A stretch of DNA of 64,000 nt from a virus. Within the stretch, counting starts at the first letter, position 1. Every line of letters starts with the position of its first letter. Shown here piece after piece: positions 53,906-63,839 of this stretch. The notes beneath the pieces are model-generated. The model had not been told where the DNA came from and searched no databases. It saw only the letters and a program-made list of their open reading frames with translations. Position numbers and translations under genes: made by a program. The stretch covers positions 1-64,000 of the IMG/VR virus record IMGVR_UViG_3300035670_000060; one strand, given 5' to 3'.

Positions 53906-54649
53906 TTATCCAATCATATCAGATACAGGTAATGAATATGAAGATATCATCTCAGCTTCTAATGCTGTTATTTCATCTGTTGCTTCATCCCAAATTTTTT
54001 GACCGTTGAATGTCAGACCACCCGGCATTTGGAGACCTTCAAACTTTTTTAAATTTTCGCCCCACTGTTTTTTAATTTGTGCTGTTGCATATCGTTGAAG
54101 CCATCTGTCACCCCATACATCTGAGTATGTATCAGGATCCACTTTCTGGTATGCTTCAATAATAATATATTCGCCAGTCACAACTTTTGCTGACCAATCC
54201 ATATCGATATAAAGTCTGTTTACATGGCGATTATATCTGAGACTTTGGCGCCCAACAAAAAGTTCTTCAGCAAGCGCAACATTCTGAAGTGCCATGTAGT
54301 ATGGTGCGAAAGGTCCATAATTGAATGCAAACAGATCGTTCAGTGCGATTTGATATCGAATGTTGAACAGATTGTTTGAAGAATAAGAGTCACCAATATC
54401 AAATATATTAATGATACCAATGACTGCTTCTGGAATGGTTATGTATTTGTTTGTCTTGTCTTCAGCAGTGACTGGATGTGCTAAATAAACTTTCTGTGTA
54501 CCATCAAAATGATAATCGTGATAATACGCTAATGCTTCGTCAATTCTATCTTCAACTTGTTCATCCGCTACATTAATTTCAAGTACAGGTTTCCCTAACT
54601 TACGTAAGCAATATTCTTTAAATTCATCTCTACTGGTAGGTTTAGCCAT
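53906..54649 (-). CDS. gp13: Neck protein gp13
   Basis: YCLRKLGKPVLEINV, YHFDG, KKQWGENLKKF, PGG. Confidence 0.94.
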   Translation of the reverse strand: MAKPTSRDEFKEYCLRKLGKPVLEINVADEQVEDRIDEALAYYHDYHFDGTQKVYLAHPVTAEDKTNKYITIPEAVIGIINIFDIGDSYSSNNLFNIRYQIALNDLFAFNYGPFAPYYMALQNVALAEELFVGRQSLRYNRHVNRLYIDMDWSAKVVTGEYIIIEAYQKVDPDTYSDVWGDRWLQRYATAQIKKQWGENLKKFEGLQMPGGLTFNGQKIWDEATDEITALEAEMISSYSLPVSDMIG

Positions 54650-54675: not shown

Positions 54676-54683
54676 TATTTATA
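54676..54683 (-). promoter_or_regulatory. T4-type late promoter TATAAATA
   Basis: Exact motif upstream of gp13. Confidence 0.75.
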
Positions 54684-54685
54684 AT

Positions 54686-54898
54686 TTAACAGATTAGTGC
54701 TTTGCCATCAATCAATAGTAAATTGCCTTTGCATGCCAGATTCCATTTTTTTACACCATGCTCGTAAGTACATTCGTCATACACGGGCACGTTGATTTCT
54801 AAACTTTTAGCTAAGACTTCTTCGCCATTTTCAAAAATTCTCCAGAAAAAATCAGTGTCGCCGTGCTGTGTATTAAATCGAATATGGTATTGCTTCAT
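54686..54898 (-). CDS. Small conserved hypothetical protein
   Basis: YHIRFN...WRIFENG...KWNLACKG; ATGA overlap with the upstream kinase fusion. Confidence 0.65.
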   Translation of the reverse strand: MKQYHIRFNTQHGDTDFFWRIFENGEEVLAKSLEINVPVYDECTYEHGVKKWNLACKGNLLLIDGKALIC

Positions 54899-55731
54899 TC
54901 AATTCCCATTTCTTTTCGAATTTTGGTTGCTGAAATAGCATGTATCGTATCATCGAAAACTTCTTGTTCAATCTTGTAGCCGACATCTCTACCGTATGTG
55001 ATGTTTACAATGTTTGGAACAATCAAAATTTCATACTGACCTTGATAGAGTGGATCTAAGTCTCTTCGAATATAGTTTTTAACTTCTTCAATTGCAAATG
55101 GATTACTTCCATTCCAACCCTGACAATCACGAATCATGATACATACTTGACCAGTTTTTGCTAACGCTCTTTCAAATAACGCACGATGACCTTTGTGCCA
55201 TGGTTGCCAACGACCTAACATCTGCACAGTTTCTTTGCGCCAATCAAAAGTTGGTCTTCTTTTACGACTTAAAATTGCTTCACCTACATACTGCACCCAC
55301 TTTTCAGCATTCTTTTCGTTGATTCTAAAATCATAGATTTCTGGTGGCACAAATGCTTTGTTCGTATCTTCATAACGACCAGCATCAATCGTATCCATCC
55401 AGATTGTCCAGTCTGCTTTAAAGTTGTGACGCATTTCAGCAAGTGGTGCTACAAAATCACAAATGACATATTCGCCAGTGCATCGCATTGCAAATTCTGC
55501 CATCCTCAACGACTGCCGAATGCGACCTTCTTTTGAAAAGTCCCAATCATTGAATCGCTTTCGAATGTCATCAGCATTGAACCAATCAACTCGTGCGTTC
55601 ATTCGAGGATATGGAGCGTCACTAAGTGTGTTTAAAGGACGCTCTCCGTGAATCTCAAGATAAGTCTTTAATCGTTCTGCAAAATATGTTTTACCTGAGC
55701 CAGGCAAACCCATAATCAATATTTTTTCCAT
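54895..55731 (-). CDS. APS-kinase-like P-loop domain fused to an HxGH nucleotidyltransferase (putative minimal PAPS synthase)
   Basis: GLPGSGKT, NADDIR, DFSKEGRIRQ, CDFVAP (CysC-like); GRWQPWHKGH, YGRD, ISATKIR (HxGH nucleotidyltransferase). Confidence 0.75.
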   Translation of the reverse strand: MEKILIMGLPGSGKTYFAERLKTYLEIHGERPLNTLSDAPYPRMNARVDWFNADDIRKRFNDWDFSKEGRIRQSLRMAEFAMRCTGEYVICDFVAPLAEMRHNFKADWTIWMDTIDAGRYEDTNKAFVPPEIYDFRINEKNAEKWVQYVGEAILSRKRRPTFDWRKETVQMLGRWQPWHKGHRALFERALAKTGQVCIMIRDCQGWNGSNPFAIEEVKNYIRRDLDPLYQGQYEILIVPNIVNITYGRDVGYKIEQEVFDDTIHAISATKIRKEMGIE

Positions 55732-55748
55732 TATATAAAACTCCAAAA

Positions 55749-55994
55749 TTATTGAGCGATTGCTGCACTTCCCTGAGTGATTGCGTTATGCAAATCAGAA
55801 ATGTCTTCGCCAGATCCGGACACATCTGGATTTCCAACTACTAGTTTAAGATGCTCAACATTTCGATCAATGTTTCCACGAAGTTCGTCAGAAAGTGTTG
55901 CGCCTGCTGCAATCTTTGCTAAAGAATCTTCAATGACCCAAACGCTATCTCTTGCTGCTCGAATTGTATATAGAACTTCTGGTGTTGCTGGCAT
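55749..55994 (-). CDS. Hypothetical protein
   Basis: 81-aa ORF with GGAGG RBS; RNVEHLKL motif. Confidence 0.65.
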   Translation of the reverse strand: MPATPEVLYTIRAARDSVWVIEDSLAKIAAGATLSDELRGNIDRNVEHLKLVVGNPDVSGSGEDISDLHNAITQGSAAIAQ

Positions 55995-55995
55995 A

Positions 55996-56946
55996 TTAGC
56001 CTCCTATGAGTTTAGTATCTTCGGTTTCTGTTGGTGCATCCGATTCGGATGTTGGTTCTTCAAAATTTGCGTCAATCTCTTGTAGATTTCTCCAAAATGC
56101 TGTATTTTCACATCGCTTTAAAATTTCTTCTGAAAGAACTTCTTTAGGATCGACTGACGCTCTATTTATTGTACTACGAACTTCATGCATGTCTGCAAGC
56201 CCATAAACTTCAGCATCTTTTTCTTTATGTATGTTTTCAATTTTGCTAAAGTCATGTGCGAAATATTCTTCACCAAGAAATTCATAAATCTTTCGCATTG
56301 TATCATCTGGATTCTCAAGCAAATCGTTATATTCAATGAAGTGAAGATTTTTCTGTCTACCTTCCATTAGTGCTTGTTGAATGCCAAAATAGCTTTGGCC
56401 AAGAATTCCATTTGGACTAGCTAAGAACGTACATCGATTATCATCGTTTAAAGGCGTGTTTGTTTTGATAAGCATTTCATCAATGAAATTAATCTTACCT
56501 TCACCGCCGTATGGATTTCTGCGTTGCATTGTAATAAATGATGTAAGAATTTCTTCAATGTCACGAACTGGGCATAAAACTTTTGGTTCAATTCCAAAAT
56601 ATCCAGGAATGTAATGTAGTCGATTCACCCATGACCGATTCTTGTCAATGATGACAGGCTTATCTACGTCAGAATAATAATTATCCATGACACTAGAAAT
56701 AATTTTTGCAGCTTGTGGTAACTTAGGAAAAGCCATAAAAAGTTCATCGTTTGAAAAAGAATTTTCAAGCGTGAGCATTGTAGGTACCACAGGAGAACTT
56801 GGACCAGAATAGACTCTTGGATTTTGATTTAGAATCGATGATAGAAGTGTACTTCCTGATCTTGGAAGCCCAGACATAAAGTAGTATGTCTTCATTGACG
56901 CTCTCATCATTTCTTCTCTTATAATTTCTTTAATCATTTCTTTCAT
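55996..56946 (-). CDS. PAPS-dependent sulfotransferase
   Basis: 5'-PSB motif SGLPRSGSTLL, DKNRSW, VRD...ILTSF (3'-PB), IEYNDL. Confidence 0.88.
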   Translation of the reverse strand: MKEMIKEIIREEMMRASMKTYYFMSGLPRSGSTLLSSILNQNPRVYSGPSSPVVPTMLTLENSFSNDELFMAFPKLPQAAKIISSVMDNYYSDVDKPVIIDKNRSWVNRLHYIPGYFGIEPKVLCPVRDIEEILTSFITMQRRNPYGGEGKINFIDEMLIKTNTPLNDDNRCTFLASPNGILGQSYFGIQQALMEGRQKNLHFIEYNDLLENPDDTMRKIYEFLGEEYFAHDFSKIENIHKEKDAEVYGLADMHEVRSTINRASVDPKEVLSEEILKRCENTAFWRNLQEIDANFEEPTSESDAPTETEDTKLIGG

Positions 56947-56957
56947 TGTTCATCACC

Positions 56958-57860
56958 TCATTGTTGATTGTTTACAGATTCTATAATTTTATTTATATCA
57001 AATAATTTAACGTCATCTGTATAAGGATATTCAATTTCATTTCCGTTGAAGTCAAAGTCAAATAAGTAACTGCCAGGAAGTTTGAAGTTATATGGCACAT
57101 CGGTACAAATATTATCATGCATATCATAACCAAAAACTTTAGGGCTTGTACCATTCCATAAAACAGTGGATTTCTTTCTAAGTGCTGCTGCTGCATGTTG
57201 CAACGAAGAGTCTATAAGAATTCTCTTTTTGCTATGTAAAAGAATACTAAAAAATTCCATTAGACTGAGTGCTTGTTGCTGCGTAGCAAAAACATGTTCA
57301 GCGCCTTCAAGTTTTGGTGAGTTCATCTTGGTAACTTGGTAAATATGATAGTCTTTTTTGTAATAGTCTATCAATTCTTGTGCTAATTCTGGCGGCATGT
57401 CTCTTGTCCATGAATAAGGCTTAGCATCTGTTGTCATTGGACCGCCACTTGTATGTATAACCATGATAGGCTTTTTTCTCAACCAAAATTTTCTTGAAAG
57501 ATCCCATTGAAGTTTATTAAACTTTACCTCTGGGCGCTCATTGTCGAATTTTAATTGATGCATTTCGCACCAATTTTCAATCAGTCGTTTCCGTTTATGT
57601 ATATGATTTGTCGTATAGTATGGTTCGTGATGAAAAATCAGAGAATCTTTATCTTGAATGTATTCTTGGTAGAAATATTGTGTGCCACCTAACAGAAAAA
57701 CTCTGTCAACAAAAGAAAGATTAATAAAAATATCAGGATATGCACATACGACAATGAGTTTTCTGTCAGGAAAATTGTTTTTAATTGCTTTTGCAACAGC
57801 GGTTGCTGCTACGTGTTTTCCAATACCGCCTTGAAGATGAAAAATACTATATTTCTTCAT
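56958..57860 (-). CDS. GT-B-fold glycosyltransferase (GT9-like)
   Basis: GGIGKHV N-terminus, IDSSLQHAAAAL, VLWNGTSP..FGY. Confidence 0.7.
   Translation of the reverse strand: MKKYSIFHLQGGIGKHVAATAVAKAIKNNFPDRKLIVVCAYPDIFINLSFVDRVFLLGGTQYFYQEYIQDKDSLIFHHEPYYTTNHIHKRKRLIENWCEMHQLKFDNERPEVKFNKLQWDLSRKFWLRKKPIMVIHTSGGPMTTDAKPYSWTRDMPPELAQELIDYYKKDYHIYQVTKMNSPKLEGAEHVFATQQQALSLMEFFSILLHSKKRILIDSSLQHAAAALRKKSTVLWNGTSPKVFGYDMHDNICTDVPYNFKLPGSYLFDFDFNGNEIEYPYTDDVKLFDINKIIESVNNQQ
56990..56997 (-). promoter_or_regulatory. Putative T4-type late promoter TATAAATA ahead of the sulfotransferase
   Basis: Exact motif 44 nt upstream of the sulfotransferase start, inside the 3' end of the GT gene. Confidence 0.5.
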
Positions 57861-57861
57861 A

Positions 57862-58590
57862 TTATAACCTTTCTTTTGTTGCTTTCACGATGTCCCACGT
57901 TCTCGCATTTTTGATATGATGAAAATGATATGCATTACTTGCGTCTAAAGCTAGTCTTTTAGTTATGTCATAATTTTTATGCTCTGAAACAAGCGTTTTT
58001 GATATCTCACCTTTGATCCTATTCGTCTTGAATATGTATATATGTTCGTTGTTCTGCGTCAGATATTCATCACCGAACCAGATTTGATATAGTCTTGGTA
58101 TCACCTTATACGAAGTTCGCTTTATAAACATACATACACCAAATGCATATCCTTGACCACCTATAGGTTGAGTTTTATCATGTTTGAGTTTGAACAATTC
58201 ATCTTCACCTTCATGAACACCAACTGTATAATTATCTGGTGTGTTTTTTAAATGAACGCCTACAACATCAATCTCTTTAAAATCTACTGCTGAGAAATCA
58301 CGAAATACACTCGATTCAACTTCTATGTCATCATTGATAATGGAAAGAACATTCGCTTTTGATCTATAGTAACCTTCATTCCACGAAGGATTTACGTAGT
58401 TGTTTTTACCATAACAAATGATATGCAACTTAGATGAATTCAATTCGTCAACTCTTTTTGGTCGATTTGCTTTGTCATTGTCAATCAAAAAGATATTTCC
58501 AATATACTCGCATTCAATGTAGGTGTCAAGTGCGGATAGAAAATTTTTAGACTTCCACATTGTAGGAATTACAACGTCAATTGTATTCAT
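57862..58590 (-). CDS. GT2-like glycosyltransferase
   Basis: VVIPTMW, LIDN, NPSWN, INDD, WFGD. Confidence 0.75.
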   Translation of the reverse strand: MNTIDVVIPTMWKSKNFLSALDTYIECEYIGNIFLIDNDKANRPKRVDELNSSKLHIICYGKNNYVNPSWNEGYYRSKANVLSIINDDIEVESSVFRDFSAVDFKEIDVVGVHLKNTPDNYTVGVHEGEDELFKLKHDKTQPIGGQGYAFGVCMFIKRTSYKVIPRLYQIWFGDEYLTQNNEHIYIFKTNRIKGEISKTLVSEHKNYDITKRLALDASNAYHFHHIKNARTWDIVKATKERL

Positions 58591-59249
58591 AAATCTTCTA
58601 TGTTATAATTTTTCATTGTCGATTCAAAATTACCTTTATACATCTTATTGCCTAAATGGTAAACTGTATGATTCGGTTTGATCCAGATTTTGTAACCGAG
58701 TTCTCGAATCTTATTTGAAAGTGTAATATCTTCACCAACAAAAGCTCCGTTTATGTATGTAAATTCACATATGTTTTTTAATTTCTTACTACGAAAATCT
58801 AATTCAACATTAGAGATCCATAAATCTTTAATGACTTTTTTGGAAAGTTTTAGAAAGCCTGTTCCTACACGAGATGCTGTCAGATAACCATCTTTCGGAT
58901 CTCTCTTGACCACACTGTTAAAATAAACGTTATACTGTATATTTGTATCACCTTTATTTACAACTGGTATAGCGATGACATCTTTTGGTGAAGAAAGAAT
59001 TTCAATCAATGCTTTCTCATCCCACATTTCATCATCGTCAATGAATACCATTGCATCATAATTTTCTTTGTATGCTAAATTAAAGAGTTCATTTCTGGCC
59101 ATTGGAAGAATACTTTCATTGGCCAGAAACACTACATTGATTGACAAATCGTGTTTCAATCCTAACTTAATAGATTCACATAAACTATGAACGAAATATG
59201 CGTCTACTTTTTGATCTAAACATGGTGTAGCAATTAATATACGTTTCAT
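58587..59249 (-). CDS. GT-A-fold glycosyltransferase-like protein (same family as 11146..11982)
   Basis: IATP, ESILPMARN, FIDDD, GTGF, GED. Confidence 0.7.
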   Translation of the reverse strand: MKRILIATPCLDQKVDAYFVHSLCESIKLGLKHDLSINVVFLANESILPMARNELFNLAYKENYDAMVFIDDDEMWDEKALIEILSSPKDVIAIPVVNKGDTNIQYNVYFNSVVKRDPKDGYLTASRVGTGFLKLSKKVIKDLWISNVELDFRSKKLKNICEFTYINGAFVGEDITLSNKIRELGYKIWIKPNHTVYHLGNKMYKGNFESTMKNYNIEDL

Positions 59250-59284
59250 AACATACCTTTTCTTTCATCATTGTTCACACAGCC

Positions 59285-59313
59285 ATTGTATATATTGTCA
59301 CATAAAATGTCAA
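59285..59313 (-). promoter_or_regulatory. Sigma70-type promoter for the glycosyltransferase/sulfation cluster
   Basis: TTGACA-17 nt-TACAAT. Confidence 0.65.
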
Positions 59314-62300
59314 GTAACTCTTTTCTCTAGTGCTTCAAGTCTACTCTTAAGTGCATCTATTTCATTCGACATCTCATTAATTGTATTGACAAGAACTGGT
59401 ATCAAATGATCATTTGTCATTTGAAGTTTTTCCGGCATCTCTTTACTTACGATGACAGGATTGTCACCTTCAGCCTCTAGAATGTTTTGTGCGCTGAAAC
59501 CATATCGTTTTCTGGTATCCGTAATTTCACCAGTGTCTCGATTTTTAAATGAGAATTCAATTGGTGTAATCTTTCGAAGAAAATCTCTACCGTGTGGAAC
59601 AGGTCCGAAGATTGTTTTGTCACGAACATCTGAAACAGTAGTCCAACCAATTTGAATTTGAGCGCAAGTATGTGCATTATTGCCCATGATGATGCGATTT
59701 GATTCAGTTGTGATATTAGCTAGACCAATTGTTCCAACAGCAGCATTGCATCCAAAGAAAAGATTGTTGCTGCCAGTGGTGTTACAGTAACCAGCACATT
59801 GACCAGCAAAGATGTTATTATTGCCAGTGGTGTTAGCAGCACCAGCAGCATTACCAATGAAATTATTGTTAGAGCCAGTGGTGTTATTTAAACCAGCACT
59901 TTGACCAAAGAAATTATTACTACAGCCAGTGGTATTGCCATAACCAGCACTTGAACCAATGAAATTATTAAAACCGCCAGTGGTATTGTAGCGACCAGCA
60001 CTTGCACCAAAGAAATTATTACTAGTGCCAGTGGTGTTGTTTAGACCAGCACTTGCACCAAAGAAATTATTACTAGTGCCAGTGGTGTTACTGCAACCAG
60101 CATTCACACCAATGAAATTATTGTAACTGCCAGTGGTGTTCTTGTAACCAGCACGATTACCAATGAAATTGTTATGTCCGCCAGTTGTGTTATAGTAACC
60201 AGCACGATTACCAAAAAAATTATTTTGGCTGCCAGTGGTATTATAGTAGCCAGTTTGCCTACCAAAGAAATTATTATAATTGCCTGTGGTATTATAGAAA
60301 CCTGCTAATGGACCAAAGAAATTGTTACAATTACCTGTTGTGTTACAGTAACCAGCACATGCACCAAAGAAATTATTAAAAAATCCAGTGGTATTATTGT
60401 TACCAGCCACGTAACCCATAAAATTATTATAAGCGCCTGTGGTGGTATTGCGACCAGCACATAAACCAGCGAAGAAGTTGTAACAGGCATCGTTACAGTA
60501 ACCAGCTGCTAAACCAATAAAAATATTACCAATGCCTGTGACGTTAAAGCGACCTGCATCTTTTCCAAAGAAAGTATTATTGCTACCAGTTGTATTTTTA
60601 CAACCAGCAAGATTACCAATGAAAGTGTTATAACTGCCATTAGTATTACAGAGACCAGCACATTGACCAATGAAAGTATTGCCACTGCCAGTGGTATTGC
60701 CATAACCAGATACAAGACCAAAGAAATTATTATGACATCCAGTGGTGTTGCTGGAACCAGCTTGATTACCAAAGAAATTATTACAACTGCCAGTGGTATT
60801 AGTTATGCCAGCAGCATTACCAAAGAAATTATTATGACAGCCACTGCTATTGCCGCGACCAGCATATCGACCAAAGAAATTATTAAAACAGCCAGTAGTA
60901 TTGTAGCGACCAGCACAACAACCAATGAAATTATTATAACTGCCAGTGGTATTGTAGCGACCAGCACAAAAACCAATAAAATTATTACTAGTGCCAGTGG
61001 TGTTAGAGAAACCAGCACATTGACCAAAGAAATTATTATTACAGCCAGTGGTATTGGAGCGACCAGCACTTGGACCAAAGAAATTATTATTGCTGCCAGT
61101 GGTGTTACAGAAACCAGCCCATCTACCAAAGAAATTATTAAAACAGCCAGTGGTGTTATTGCGACCAGCACATAGACCAAAGAAATTATTATAGCTGCCT
61201 GTTGTGTTAACCAAACCAGCACTATTACCAATGAAATTATTATTGCTACCCGTCGTGTTACAGTAGCCAGCCGACTCACCAAAGAAATTATTATGACTGC
61301 CTGTTGTGTTAAAGCGTCCGGTATAATAACCAAAGAAATTATTATTGCTGCCTGTTGTGTTCAAACAACCAGCACTTCCACCAAAGAAATTATTCTTCCA
61401 GCCTGTTGTGTTACATAAACCAGCACAACGACCAAAGAAATTATTATAGCTGCCTGCTGTGTTAAAGTAACCAGCACTTAGACCAAAGAAATTATTACAG
61501 CCGCCTGTTGTGTTACAGAAACCAGCACTTTGACCAAAGAAATTATTATTACAGCCAGTGGTGTTACTGTAACCAGCAGCGCAACCAAAGAAATTATTGT
61601 GATTGCCAATTGTATTGGAAAAACCAGCACTTTGACCAAAAAAGTTATTCCAAGCACCACTGATATTACACATACCAGCACAAAGACCAGCAAAGAAGTT
61701 ACAACCGCCAATGATATTGTAGCGACCAGCATTTAAACCGATAAAAGTATTATGACAGCCTGTTGTATTACAGAAACCTGCACATCGATTAATAAAGGTA
61801 TTATATTTGCCATTGGTATTAAAACGACCAGCATCACGACCAAGGAAAATATTATCATTACCATCGATATTAGCGTAACCAGCACATTGACCAGCAAAGA
61901 AGTTATAACTGCCAGTGATGTTACAGTAACCAGCAGCGCAACCAAAGAAATTATTATTACATCCAGTGGTATTATTAATACCAGCAAAATGACCAAAGAA
62001 ATTATTAAATCTAGCAGTGGTGGTAGAACGACCTGCTTGATTACCAATGAAAGTATTACCAAATCCAGTGGTATTAGCGTAACCAGCATAGTAACCAATG
62101 AAATTATTAGAACCACCAGTGGTGTTACAGTAACCAGCACATGTACCAGCAAAGAAGTTATGACAGCCAGTGGTATTACTGTAACCAGCAAGATAACCAA
62201 AGAAATTATTCATACTGCCAGTGGTGTTACTGTAACCAGCACATAAACCTGCGAAAAAGTTATGACTACCAGTGGTGTTACATAAACCAGCACATGCACC

Positions 62301-63839
62301 AATAAAAGTATTATGACTGCCAGTGGTGTTAAAGCGACCAGCGCATAAACCTGCGAAAAAGTTATAGCTACCGTAGTTATTGGCTAAACCAGCACTGTTA
62401 CCGAAGAAATTATTGTGACTGCCAGCATTCAAATAACCAGCAAAATGACCAAAGCTATTATTATTACAACCAGTAATGCTAAGAAAACCAGCATAGCGAC
62501 CAAGGTAATTATTATGACTGCCAGTGGTATTGGAGCGACCAGCTTGATTACCAAAAAAGTTATTATAACAACCAGTGGTGTTAAGACGACCAGCAGCTAG
62601 ACCAAAGAAATTATTAAAACTGCCAGTGGTGTTATTGCAACCAGCACTTTGACCAAAGAAATTATTACCAGCGCCAGTGGTGTTACGAAAACCACTATTA
62701 CATCCTAAAAAGTTATTAAAACTGCCAGTGGTGGTGGCAAAACCTGAAGAAAAACCTGCGAAGAAGTTATGACATCCAGTGGTGTTACAGAAACCAGCAC
62801 ATTGACCGAAGAAAATATTACCAGCGCCAGTGGTGTTATTGTAACCAGCATATTGACCAATGAAAATATTAAAACATCCTGTGGTGTTGTAGCGACCAGC
62901 ACAGGAACCAGCAAAGAAGTTGTGACTACCAGTGCTATTGGCATAACCAGTATAACAACCAAAGAAATTATTATGAGATCCTGTGGTGTTATTGAGACCA
63001 GCAGCAAGACCTAAAAAATTATTCCAACTACCTGTAGTGTTATTTCTACCTGAATTATTACCAATGTAATTATTATTACAGCCTGTAGTATTGTTACGAC
63101 CTGTATATTTTCCAATAAAATTATTGTTAGATGCTGTTTCATTATATAATCCAGCACCTTTACCAAAGAAATTATTGTAAGAACCTGTGCTATTATACTT
63201 ACCAGCTTCATGACCAAAGAAATTGTTATAACATCCGCTACTATTACATCGTCCAGCATTTAAACCAAAAATATTATTAAAACATCCTGTAGTGTTAATA
63301 CAACCAGCATTTTGACCTAAGAAAATGTTCCAACTACCAGCTAAGTTGCATCGGCCAGCAGATTCACCTAAAAAGATATTACTGACGCCAGTGGTGTTAC
63401 AAAAACCAGCTCGTGATCCTGCAAAAAAGTTGCTGCTTCCTCCACCAAAATTACATGACATGCCACTTATTATATTGCAATTACCTTTAGTTACAAATGC
63501 ACTTGTAGTTTTTTCTGTATACCATGCACCACCTGATGCAAAAATTCGTGTGCCTTGTTCTCTATACAATATAATAGATGCTCTACCGTCATCGATAGTT
63601 TCAGCACCTTGCGGATCAATAGTTAAATTAAACGCTACGTTATTGAAAATTTTAAATGACATTCCCTCGGAACTTGCTGCTGGAGGTAAATTGATCGTCC
63701 CCGCTGCTGTTCCGTTATAAACAATGATGTCATTATTATCTTCAGGAGATACCGTATATGCACTCGCAGTGATATTTTTGGTAAGTTCTCTATAAGGAAC
63801 TTGACTGTTGAGTGCCGATATCTGATAAGGTCTTGCCAT
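59310..63839 (-). CDS. Repeat-rich fibre protein with C-terminal intramolecular chaperone (peptidase S74-like), 1509 aa
   Basis: About 72 17-aa NTTG repeats; SDVRDK...YGFSAQ...LIPVLVNTINE plus terminal coiled coil. Confidence 0.85.
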   Translation of the reverse strand: MARPYQISALNSQVPYRELTKNITASAYTVSPEDNNDIIVYNGTAAGTINLPPAASSEGMSFKIFNNVAFNLTIDPQGAETIDDGRASIILYREQGTRIFASGGAWYTEKTTSAFVTKGNCNIISGMSCNFGGGSSNFFAGSRAGFCNTTGVSNIFLGESAGRCNLAGSWNIFLGQNAGCINTTGCFNNIFGLNAGRCNSSGCYNNFFGHEAGKYNSTGSYNNFFGKGAGLYNETASNNNFIGKYTGRNNTTGCNNNYIGNNSGRNNTTGSWNNFLGLAAGLNNTTGSHNNFFGCYTGYANSTGSHNFFAGSCAGRYNTTGCFNIFIGQYAGYNNTTGAGNIFFGQCAGFCNTTGCHNFFAGFSSGFATTTGSFNNFLGCNSGFRNTTGAGNNFFGQSAGCNNTTGSFNNFFGLAAGRLNTTGCYNNFFGNQAGRSNTTGSHNNYLGRYAGFLSITGCNNNSFGHFAGYLNAGSHNNFFGNSAGLANNYGSYNFFAGLCAGRFNTTGSHNTFIGACAGLCNTTGSHNFFAGLCAGYSNTTGSMNNFFGYLAGYSNTTGCHNFFAGTCAGYCNTTGGSNNFIGYYAGYANTTGFGNTFIGNQAGRSTTTARFNNFFGHFAGINNTTGCNNNFFGCAAGYCNITGSYNFFAGQCAGYANIDGNDNIFLGRDAGRFNTNGKYNTFINRCAGFCNTTGCHNTFIGLNAGRYNIIGGCNFFAGLCAGMCNISGAWNNFFGQSAGFSNTIGNHNNFFGCAAGYSNTTGCNNNFFGQSAGFCNTTGGCNNFFGLSAGYFNTAGSYNNFFGRCAGLCNTTGWKNNFFGGSAGCLNTTGSNNNFFGYYTGRFNTTGSHNNFFGESAGYCNTTGSNNNFIGNSAGLVNTTGSYNNFFGLCAGRNNTTGCFNNFFGRWAGFCNTTGSNNNFFGPSAGRSNTTGCNNNFFGQCAGFSNTTGTSNNFIGFCAGRYNTTGSYNNFIGCCAGRYNTTGCFNNFFGRYAGRGNSSGCHNNFFGNAAGITNTTGSCNNFFGNQAGSSNTTGCHNNFFGLVSGYGNTTGSGNTFIGQCAGLCNTNGSYNTFIGNLAGCKNTTGSNNTFFGKDAGRFNVTGIGNIFIGLAAGYCNDACYNFFAGLCAGRNTTTGAYNNFMGYVAGNNNTTGFFNNFFGACAGYCNTTGNCNNFFGPLAGFYNTTGNYNNFFGRQTGYYNTTGSQNNFFGNRAGYYNTTGGHNNFIGNRAGYKNTTGSYNNFIGVNAGCSNTTGTSNNFFGASAGLNNTTGTSNNFFGASAGRYNTTGGFNNFIGSSAGYGNTTGCSNNFFGQSAGLNNTTGSNNNFIGNAAGAANTTGNNNIFAGQCAGYCNTTGSNNLFFGCNAAVGTIGLANITTESNRIIMGNNAHTCAQIQIGWTTVSDVRDKTIFGPVPHGRDFLRKITPIEFSFKNRDTGEITDTRKRYGFSAQNILEAEGDNPVIVSKEMPEKLQMTNDHLIPVLVNTINEMSNEIDALKSRLEALEKRVT
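59750..63430 (-). repeat. Array of about 72 51-nt coding repeats (GxxAGxxNTTGxxNNFF)
   Basis: Same 51-nt unit as 33200-36790. Confidence 0.95.

Follow-up and report, generated by a model that had tools for sequence, protein, structure and literature searches.

In pelagimyophages, a host recognition cluster has been described as a hypervariable island, rich in fibres and glycosyltransferases, that extends as far as the neck genes (Zaragoza-Solas et al. 2020, PMC7029224). In the AAH/TibC systems, cytoplasmic heptosyltransferases are encoded beside the repetitive beta-helix proteins AIDA-I and TibA, which are decorated many times (PMC4358343), and phage-encoded virion glycosylation provides a further precedent (Freeman et al. 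2023, as cited in PMC12582341; PMC11256854). Here, we analyzed a stretch of 64,000 nucleotides of viral DNA (positions 1 to 64,000 of the IMG/VR record IMGVR_UViG_3300035670_000060; hereafter, the window), in which seven tightly coupled genes at 54686-59249 on the minus strand lie between the gene of a 1509-aa fibre and the neck gene gp13. These genes encode GT-A-, GT2-, and GT9-like glycosyltransferases, a sulfotransferase predicted to use 3'-phosphoadenosine 5'-phosphosulfate (PAPS), two small open reading frames (ORFs), and KinNT, a fusion of an adenosine 5'-phosphosulfate (APS)-kinase-like domain with a domain like nicotinamide mononucleotide adenylyltransferases (NMNATs). The region represents the downstream end of such a host recognition cluster, as known from pelagimyophages, and what is new in it is the core of the GT9-like and sulfotransferase genes together with KinNT. 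That the seven genes form a sulfated-glycan cassette with its own predicted PAPS supply is well supported by comparison. As the best overall explanation, we propose that the cassette builds a sulfated glycan on the fibre and that KinNT supplies the donor, a proposal whose chances we regard as even.

The window belongs to a virus record of 113.6 kb with a completeness rating of 63%, and it contains T4-type portal, sheath, terminase, gp13, gp14, and gp15 genes. The large terminase subunit (TerL) is approximately 51% identical to those of the OM43 phage Melnitz and the pelagimyophage Mosig, and approximately 48% identical to those of cyanomyophages. Therefore, the source was assigned to an uncultured marine T4-like myophage near the pelagimyophages. 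An earlier note on this DNA, made from the sequence, had described a coupled run of GT-A-, GT2-, and GT9-like enzymes, a sulfotransferase, a small ORF, and an APS-kinase/nucleotidyltransferase fusion between the 1509-aa fibre gene and gp13. Our analysis confirmed this run, its location, and its ORF positions, all on the minus strand, and upheld the enzyme identities, so that the cassette stands as a coupled unit adjoining the fibre gene. From the fibre gene to gp13, the successive gaps are 60, −4, 1, 11, 1, 2, −4, and 36 nt. None of the seven proteins contains a membrane-spanning segment, and a DNA-level search of cultured phages with the cassette gave no match.

Seventeen viral contigs fetched through the sulfotransferase (L006-L022) were then compared with the window. 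As observed, their genes follow the order fibre, GT-A, GT2, (methyltransferase), GT9-like, sulfotransferase, 81-aa ORF, (cytidylyltransferase-cupin), KinNT, and gp13. The cassette proteins are 62-82% identical between the window and these contigs, far above the identity of gp13 and gp14, which is just 28-48%, a difference suggesting that the cassette has either been exchanged among phages or been kept under stronger constraint than the neck genes. In this place, the relatives also carry extra genes, namely those of a GT25 enzyme, a fusion of a DXD glycosyltransferase with an FkbM methyltransferase, two epimerases, a UDP-glucose dehydrogenase, a GT11 enzyme, and methyltransferases, as well as a radical-SAM protein and a 2-oxoglutarate oxygenase. 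Both the synteny and the gene content across L006-L022 and a further set of loci (L192-L267) mark out a variable island in which fibres and glycosyltransferases reach up to the neck genes.

The GT9-like family was used to scan for relatives, which yielded 540 viral contigs, and features were counted in the best 80. A sulfotransferase was present in 75 of the 77 loci with enough downstream DNA, a GT2 gene in 51 of 68, and a GT-A gene in 46 of 64. An ORF of at least 600 aa lay upstream in 44 of 48, and an ORF rich in the tetrapeptide NTTG lay within 8 kb in 36 of 48. In two loci (L254 and L255), the GT9-like/sulfotransferase pair was flanked by two NTTG-rich ORFs. Thus, this pair forms a near-invariant core that almost always stands beside a giant fibre gene, mostly of the NTTG type, and the other cassette genes are swappable accessories. 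The loci counted are, however, not phylogenetically independent of one another. In three of the seventeen contigs (L007, L008, and L011), the neighbour of the cassette is a Thr-rich solenoid-like protein and not an NTTG fibre. These fibre-like proteins (L007:4532-7567, L008:762-4313, and L011:1-2196) contain 18-23% Thr, share a hydrophobic tail (GGKFFLFF or NKFLLFFV), and have no Pfam match.

The three glycosyltransferases were assigned by different kinds of evidence, and searches of them against PDB sequences, by single sequence and by profile, were uninformative. The 220-aa protein has no Pfam match. Its AlphaFold model (mean confidence score pLDDT, 90.3) matched the GT-A enzymes STIV A197, ColGalT1, LH3, SpsA, ppGalNAc-Ts, and Mnn9 in Foldseek at E-values of 2e-9 to 1e-5. 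Residues D71, D72, and D73 are invariant and constitute a DxD motif, and the neighbouring Atlas clusters carry PF00535 or Anp1. We conclude from the model that the protein is a predicted GT-A-fold glycosyltransferase. PF00535 is also carried by many homologues of the 242-aa protein at 50-55% identity. The earlier note had seen no recognisable HMW1C-like enzyme in the cassette, which agrees with our results: no HMW1C/GT41 match was obtained in Pfam or NCBIfam at E-values up to 10, and the 220-aa model is of the GT-A type. For the 300-aa protein, PF01075 (GT9) was the best family in nine of nine family members, all of them below the Pfam threshold (best E-value, 6e-4). This domain occurs in 45% of the members of the neighbouring Atlas clusters, and some homologues are annotated as heptosyltransferases by the JGI. 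Two results tell against the assignment, as the protein of the window itself reaches 14.3 bits against a cut-off of 22, which is sub-threshold, and neither the single sequence nor the profile retrieved any PDB chain at E-values up to 10, TibC and WaaC included. The 300-aa protein was thus classified, by its profile scores, as a putative and distantly GT9-like glycosyltransferase. The nearest Atlas clusters of its family are 100% viral; therefore, the gene does not look like a recent lipopolysaccharide (LPS) gene of a host.

Next, we examined the fibres, whose N-X-S/T sequons had been suggested in the earlier note as glycosylation targets. The 1509-aa fibre consists of about 73 repeats of 16-17 aa of the NNFFGxxAGxxNTTG type, with Peptidase_S74 at residues 1403-1456. 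It contains 51 NTT and 50 NTTG motifs, and its 77 N-x-S/T sequons compare with 45 expected from composition. The second giant fibre, of 2121 aa, contains 53 NTT motifs and, in N-terminal repeats, 12 NAS, 9 NIS, and 7 NVS motifs; its 101 N-x-S/T sites compare with 75 expected. These counts bear out the motif-rich repeats noted before, and both excesses arise because NTT belongs to the repeat unit. Similar NTTG-type repeats were also found in the tail fibres of Venkman, CRP-1, CRP-7, P-SSM2, and P-SSM5. In a search of cultured phages, none of these five matched the GT9-like protein, and no glycosyltransferase is annotated next to the Venkman and CRP-1 fibres. Hence, the motif is structural in the first place, an alternative that the earlier note had itself raised and that is now favoured, and the idea of the sequons as targets is not supported, as phages that lack these enzymes have such repeats in their fibres as well. 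The expected co-occurrence of the cluster with NTTG fibres held in part: it was observed in the 36 of 48 loci mentioned above, whereas 12 of 48 have the cassette without an NTTG-rich ORF within 8 kb, and NTTG fibres exist without the enzymes. Both giant fibres are also unusually rich in Cys (4.7% in the 1509-aa fibre), at variable repeat positions.

In the phage collection, homologues of the GT9-like protein were found only in HTVC111P, HTVC112P, and AG-345-L05, all of which have NTTG-type fibres. In the pelagiphage HTVC111P, a podovirus of 31.6 kb, the homologue (28% identity; E-value, 6e-18) starts where the gene of an NTTG/S74 tail fibre has its stop codon (gp52/gp53), and no further glycosyltransferase is annotated in the 10.5-kb stretch inspected. 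This layout, which recalls that of AAH/TibC, provides the best argument for the fibre as the acceptor. A further gene of this phage, gp50 (L028:225-632), annotated as a toxin-activating lysine-acyltransferase, stands directly before the tail protein and tail fibre genes and may encode another protein-modifying enzyme beside tail genes.

We propose the following mechanism. The GT-A, GT2-like, and GT9-like enzymes, which would be soluble and cytoplasmic, very likely build a short glycan, and the sulfotransferase would then sulfate it. The kinase half of KinNT would likely phosphorylate APS to PAPS, and its 115-aa NMNAT-derived half would most probably convert ATP and sulfate to the APS required. 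As the most likely acceptor, we propose the giant beta-solenoid fibre whose gene lies immediately upstream; its modification would take place in the cytoplasm, prior to assembly, in a manner similar to the decoration of AIDA-I and TibA by AAH and TibC, and would yield a sulfated glycoprotein fibre. We put the fibre as acceptor at close to an even chance, perhaps slightly below it.

The main alternative is that the cassette acts on the envelope of the infected host, at the LPS core, the O-chain, or the capsule, and may thereby block superinfection by competing phages or alter the surface of the lysing cell, with the fibres as mere neighbours in a cluster that gathers surface genes. Several observations weigh against the fibre as acceptor and towards this alternative. 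Modification of the host O-chain is the published interpretation of glycosyltransferases in pelagimyophage host recognition clusters (PMC7029224), and GT9, GT25, and GT11 are classic LPS families. The cassette is found beside several fibre types, and NTTG fibres are present in phages without any such enzyme. In SAR11 and SAR86 bacteria, the kinase/small-domain pair related to KinNT stands beside MlaA/MlaC and phospholipid genes. Lastly, the sigma70-type promoter that the earlier note had placed at 59285-59313 on the minus strand was found there, in the 60-nt gap before the GT-A gene (TTGACA, 17 nt, TACAAT; 11 of 12 positions), with full-consensus sigma70 sites in the corresponding position of L006, L007, and L008, which would fit early, host-directed expression.

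On the other side, neither the cassette of the window nor the scanned extra genes of its relatives yielded a priming transferase, a flippase, a polymerase, or any membrane protein, and the nearest clusters of the GT9-like family are viral throughout. The phage seems to be strictly lytic and carries these genes within its structural module, with a late-promoter candidate ahead of the sulfotransferase gene. In HTVC111P, the sole annotated glycosyltransferase of the inspected stretch is coupled to the tail fibre gene. Taken together, we consider modification of the host envelope unlikely, yet of appreciable probability. Early and late expression are both compatible with the promoter signals, as read from the sequence, and these signals do not decide between the acceptors. 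Promoter-like sites were overall at chance level, with 42 found and 43 expected. The eight TATAAATA sites of the window (25979, 27424, 28247, 30213, 41793, 50251, 54676, and 56990) are all on the coding strand and none on the other, and seven of them lie 1-50 nt before a start codon, a placement that looks like that of T4-type late promoters; their total count is at chance level. At the position before the sulfotransferase gene, TATAAATA or CATAAATA was present in 11 of 15 relatives. The site at 56990 codes for a conserved D-I-N-K; therefore, its conservation may be a coding effect, and it may be no promoter.

The sulfotransferase was analyzed in the same manner. The 316-aa protein matched Sulfotransfer_3 (PF13469) at an E-value of 8e-15, with 56.1 bits against a cut-off of 27 (50.8 bits in the search of its own genome). 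Residues P28, R29, G31, S32, T33, R128, and S136 were invariant among 11 sequences. We take the P28-T33 loop to be the 5'-phosphosulfate-binding motif and R128 and S136 to be the 3'-phosphate-binding residues. By these sequence features, the protein is clearly a predicted PAPS-dependent sulfotransferase of the PF13469 family. Our literature searches on phage sulfotransferases or PAPS found nothing on this system. At the N terminus, the sulfotransferases of the marine myophages (the window and L006-L022) have in common an extension of 17 residues (MKEMIKEIIREEM...), and at the C terminus an acidic tail that ends in KLIG(G); neither is present in the homologues of the cyanophages S-SKS1 and S-SRM01. 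The I-x-E motifs in the extension resemble T4 prohead-protease sites, so that the protein might conceivably be packaged or processed.

A profile of the phage sulfotransferases was closest, among solved structures, to TPST1 (1.5e-9) and TPST2 (3e-7), both members of PF13469. This similarity would suit a protein-tyrosine sulfotransferase that acts directly on a virion or host protein, independently of the glycosyltransferases. The best-scoring stretch, however, covers profile positions 21-92, on the 5'-phosphosulfate-binding side, with a weak second stretch near 190-226, and the likeness thus lies mainly in the PAPS-binding parts. The fibres are almost without acidic residues around Tyr, and the steady pairing of the sulfotransferase with the GT9-like gene fits sugar sulfation. 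The acidic, conserved 81-aa ORF next to it contains no conserved Tyr, and for this reason was also rejected as a RaxX-like Tyr-sulfated peptide. Tyrosine sulfation is, accordingly, an improbable role for this enzyme.

We then turned to KinNT, the predicted source of the donor. It matched APS_kinase (PF01583) with 28.7 bits against a cut-off of 21.1, and its architecture consists of a trimmed APS-kinase-like domain (approximately residues 1-160) followed by a 115-aa HxGH nucleotidyltransferase. The model reached a pLDDT of 92. In Foldseek, every one of the top 38 matches listed for the kinase domain was an APS kinase or the APS-kinase domain of a PAPS synthase. VIA-align Z scores were 16-18.6 for APS kinases (root-mean-square deviation, rmsd, of approximately 2 Å), 14.9 for gluconate kinase as the next family, and 10.5 for nicotinamide riboside (NR) kinase. 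Conserved in the kinase half are the P-loop and the residues aligned to the Arg of DGDxxR and to the Phe, Ser, and Arg of LGFSxxDR in canonical CysC, where both Arg and the Phe are substrate-binding. On the grounds of profile and model, we regard an APS kinase as the likely identity of this half. Dephospho-CoA kinase and NR kinase were rejected as identities (Z, 10.5-11.4). An HldE-like sugar kinase/adenylyltransferase feeding the GT9-like enzyme was also considered, prompted by the cytidylyltransferase-cupin genes beside KinNT in relatives, and was set aside because the fold of the kinase is that of APS kinases and because the gene goes along with sulfotransferases and not with GT9.

The small domain carries the NadM-type motifs GRWQPWHKGH and ISATKIR, and its PDB profile matches were only NMNATs (2qjt, 2.3e-9; 1f9a, 7.6e-8). 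With approximately 115 aa, compared with 168-181 aa in NadM and other NMNATs, it lacks the C-terminal half of NMNATs, and the alignments end near position 70-82. Its NCBIfam scores were 26-30 bits against cut-offs of 127-397. Another protein (P0461) is a fusion of an orthologue of the small domain (44% identity) with an entire CysC of the canonical type (PF01583, 5.7e-63). From such sequence associations, we lean slightly towards the small half being a new ATP sulfurylase that would convert ATP and sulfate to APS, which would make KinNT as a whole a strong candidate for a minimal PAPS synthase. With APS coming from this half, the phage would not depend on a host lacking known ATP sulfurylases.

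The distribution of KinNT in other genomes was also analyzed. In 80 viral loci fetched through the small domain alone, a sulfotransferase gene lay within 8 kb in 27, often overlapping. The small-domain loci of other phages adjoin RCC1-repeat and S74 fibre genes and further glycosyltransferases. In L048, L034, and L040, the sulfotransferase/KinNT pair stands among RCC1-repeat beta-propeller proteins, an S74 fibre, an LtfC-like protein, a GT25 enzyme, and DXD glycosyltransferases; some sulfotransferases of these lineages are approximately 570-620 aa long, and one in L040 has a C-terminal region like tetratricopeptide repeats (TPR). Across SAR11 and SAR86 genomes, the pair of kinase and small domain is likewise widespread (45-60% identity) and is for the most part encoded by two genes that overlap. 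One SAR11 locus, from a single-cell genome (L126:5974-7725), was inspected; in it, a sulfotransferase gene directly follows the pair, and the APS-kinase-like, small nucleotidyltransferase, and PF00685-like sulfotransferase genes overlap as one operon by mlaA and mlaC, and in SAR86 (L122) the pair adjoins genes of a phosphatidylserine decarboxylase and a CDP-alcohol phosphatidyltransferase. These neighbours hint at a sulfated envelope lipid or glycan in these bacteria. Neither PF01747, the Sat-type sulfurylase family, nor CysD was found in five SAR11/SAR86 genomes with the pair (completeness not stated), in which the controls were detected. Full-length KinNT homologues of approximately 38% identity also occur in the approximately 56-kb siphophages of Xylella, Xanthomonas, and Stenotrophomonas (Sanovirus).

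Other observations speak against KinNT as a dedicated sulfate-activating enzyme. In the kinase half, the DGD motif reads NAD, and ISP reads VAP in the window protein; approximately 19 lid residues (KGLYKKAR...FTGI) are missing relative to the canonical CysC half of P0461, with R(F/Y)xDTN instead. The small domain gave no Sat-type signal in Pfam, NCBIfam, or PDB profile searches, in which only NadM and archaeal NMNATs were matched, and PF01747 was not found anywhere in the phage record. KinNT was present in just 27 of 71 loci fetched through the GT9-like family, and neither KinNT nor any APS kinase accompanies the cassette in a genome of 236 kb with a completeness rating of 100%. Sanovirus phages have KinNT and were not among the sulfotransferase search matches; in the one inspected, Stenotrophomonas phage Bhz60 (L004 15492-16232), KinNT adjoins NADAR-domain and DNA methyltransferase genes, with no sulfotransferase annotated nearby. 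A NAD-salvage or other NAD-related enzyme unrelated to sulfation (NR kinase plus NMN adenylyltransferase, like a reversed NadR) would suit this Sanovirus neighbourhood, the NadM signature, and the NMNAT-only PDB matches, but is very unlikely given a kinase domain clearly nearest to APS kinases and far from NR kinase, a small domain of 115 aa instead of approximately 170 whose alignments stop after approximately 70 positions, the fusion to CysC in P0461, and the sulfotransferases near it in phage loci and after the SAR11 pair. The earlier claim that the phage makes its own sulfate donor thus gained comparative support from the CysC fusion, the sulfotransferase neighbours, and the SAR11/SAR86 pairs, while the activities of KinNT stay conjectural.

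Table 1. Positions of the cassette genes, the fibre and neck genes, and the late-promoter candidates in the window
Feature	Position	Strand	Basis or remark
Second giant fibre, 2121 aa	33028..39393	-	NTTG repeat and N-terminal NAS/NIS/NVS repeats
Neck/head-tail adaptor gp13, then gp14 and gp15	53906..54649	-	Identities confirmed
TATAAATA late-promoter candidate	54676..54683	-	27 nt before gp13
70-aa ORF	54686..54898	-	Without match in related loci L006-L022
KinNT, 283-aa ORF, APS-kinase-like and NadM/NMNAT-like fusion, candidate minimal PAPS synthase	54895..55746	-	Likely start ATG at 55734
Conserved acidic 81-aa ORF	55749..55994	-	After the sulfotransferase in most relatives
Predicted PAPS-type sulfotransferase, 316 aa, PF13469	55996..56946	-	Pfam match; presumed 5'-phosphosulfate-binding GLPRSGST and 3'-phosphate-binding R128, S136
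Distant GT9-like glycosyltransferase, putative, 300 aa, cassette core gene	56958..57860	-	PF01075 best family, sub-threshold
TATAAATA late-promoter candidate	56990..56997	-	44 nt before the sulfotransferase start, inside the 3' end of the GT9-like gene
GT2-like glycosyltransferase, 242 aa	57862..58590	-	PF00535 in homologues
Predicted GT-A-fold glycosyltransferase, 220 aa, invariant DDD at 71-73	58587..59249	-	AlphaFold model
1509-aa fibre with C-terminal Peptidase_S74 self-cleaving chaperone	59310..63839	-	Repeats and domain match

As far as the literature was searched, no description of sulfated glycans on phage particles was found. If the proposal is true, sulfated virion glycans would alter the recognition of abundant ocean phages and their adhesion to cells, mucus, or particles. 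With 540 relatives in one scan, the GT9-like/sulfotransferase pair is spread over hundreds of viral contigs from the sea, so that it is a common trait and no curiosity. If KinNT acts as proposed, it may represent a new route to activated sulfate, also in SAR11 and SAR86 bacteria. The most far-reaching version combines all of these points: a virus-specific GT9-like enzyme would decorate the fibre repeatedly, the sulfotransferase would sulfate the sugar, and PAPS would come from a 280-aa enzyme with a new ATP sulfurylase half, the same pair filling the missing sulfate activation in SAR11 and SAR86. As a whole, we consider this conjunction doubtful and put it forward as a speculation.

Finally, the locus was compared with the known systems. 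Like the pelagimyophage host recognition cluster, it is an island in the structural module of a T4-like marine myophage, with giant fibres, glycosyltransferases, and sugar-nucleotide enzymes, and it ends at the neck genes. In contrast, the main text of the description of that cluster (PMC7029224) has no mention of sulfotransferases, and presents neither a GT9-like/sulfotransferase core nor a PAPS-supply enzyme. The likeness to AAH/TibC is in layout alone, in that a GT9-like gene adjoins a long repetitive fibre (in the window, in 44 of 48 loci, and in HTVC111P gp52/gp53). No sequence similarity to TibC was detectable, and the GT9-like protein has 300 aa, whereas TibC has approximately 406 aa; to our knowledge, no sulfation step is known in the AAH/TibC system. 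Mycobacteriophage-encoded glycosyltransferases reportedly glycosylate capsid and tail proteins, as Freeman et al. are said to have found in 2023. As in those phages, the glycosyltransferase genes of the window lie in or beside the structural genes of a lytic phage, but the host group, the enzyme families, and the target proteins are different, and sulfation is unreported there.

KinNT, in turn, resembles PAPSS1/2 in that an APS kinase is fused to an adenylyltransferase of the HxGH superfamily with the kinase first, and human PAPSS1 (1x6v) aligns over both halves of the KinNT model (253 residues; rmsd, 18.9). It differs from PAPSS1/2 and from the Sat-CysC fusions of Aquifex and fungi in that its transferase half is of 115 aa and derived from NadM-type NMNATs, and in that its lid is approximately 19 residues shorter. 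In NodPQ with NodH and RaxPQ with RaxST, a sulfotransferase is encoded with its own sulfate-activation enzymes, which are of the canonical CysD/CysN/CysC type. The cassette would share with these two systems a sulfotransferase with a dedicated donor supply, whereas KinNT, unlike their enzymes, is non-canonical.

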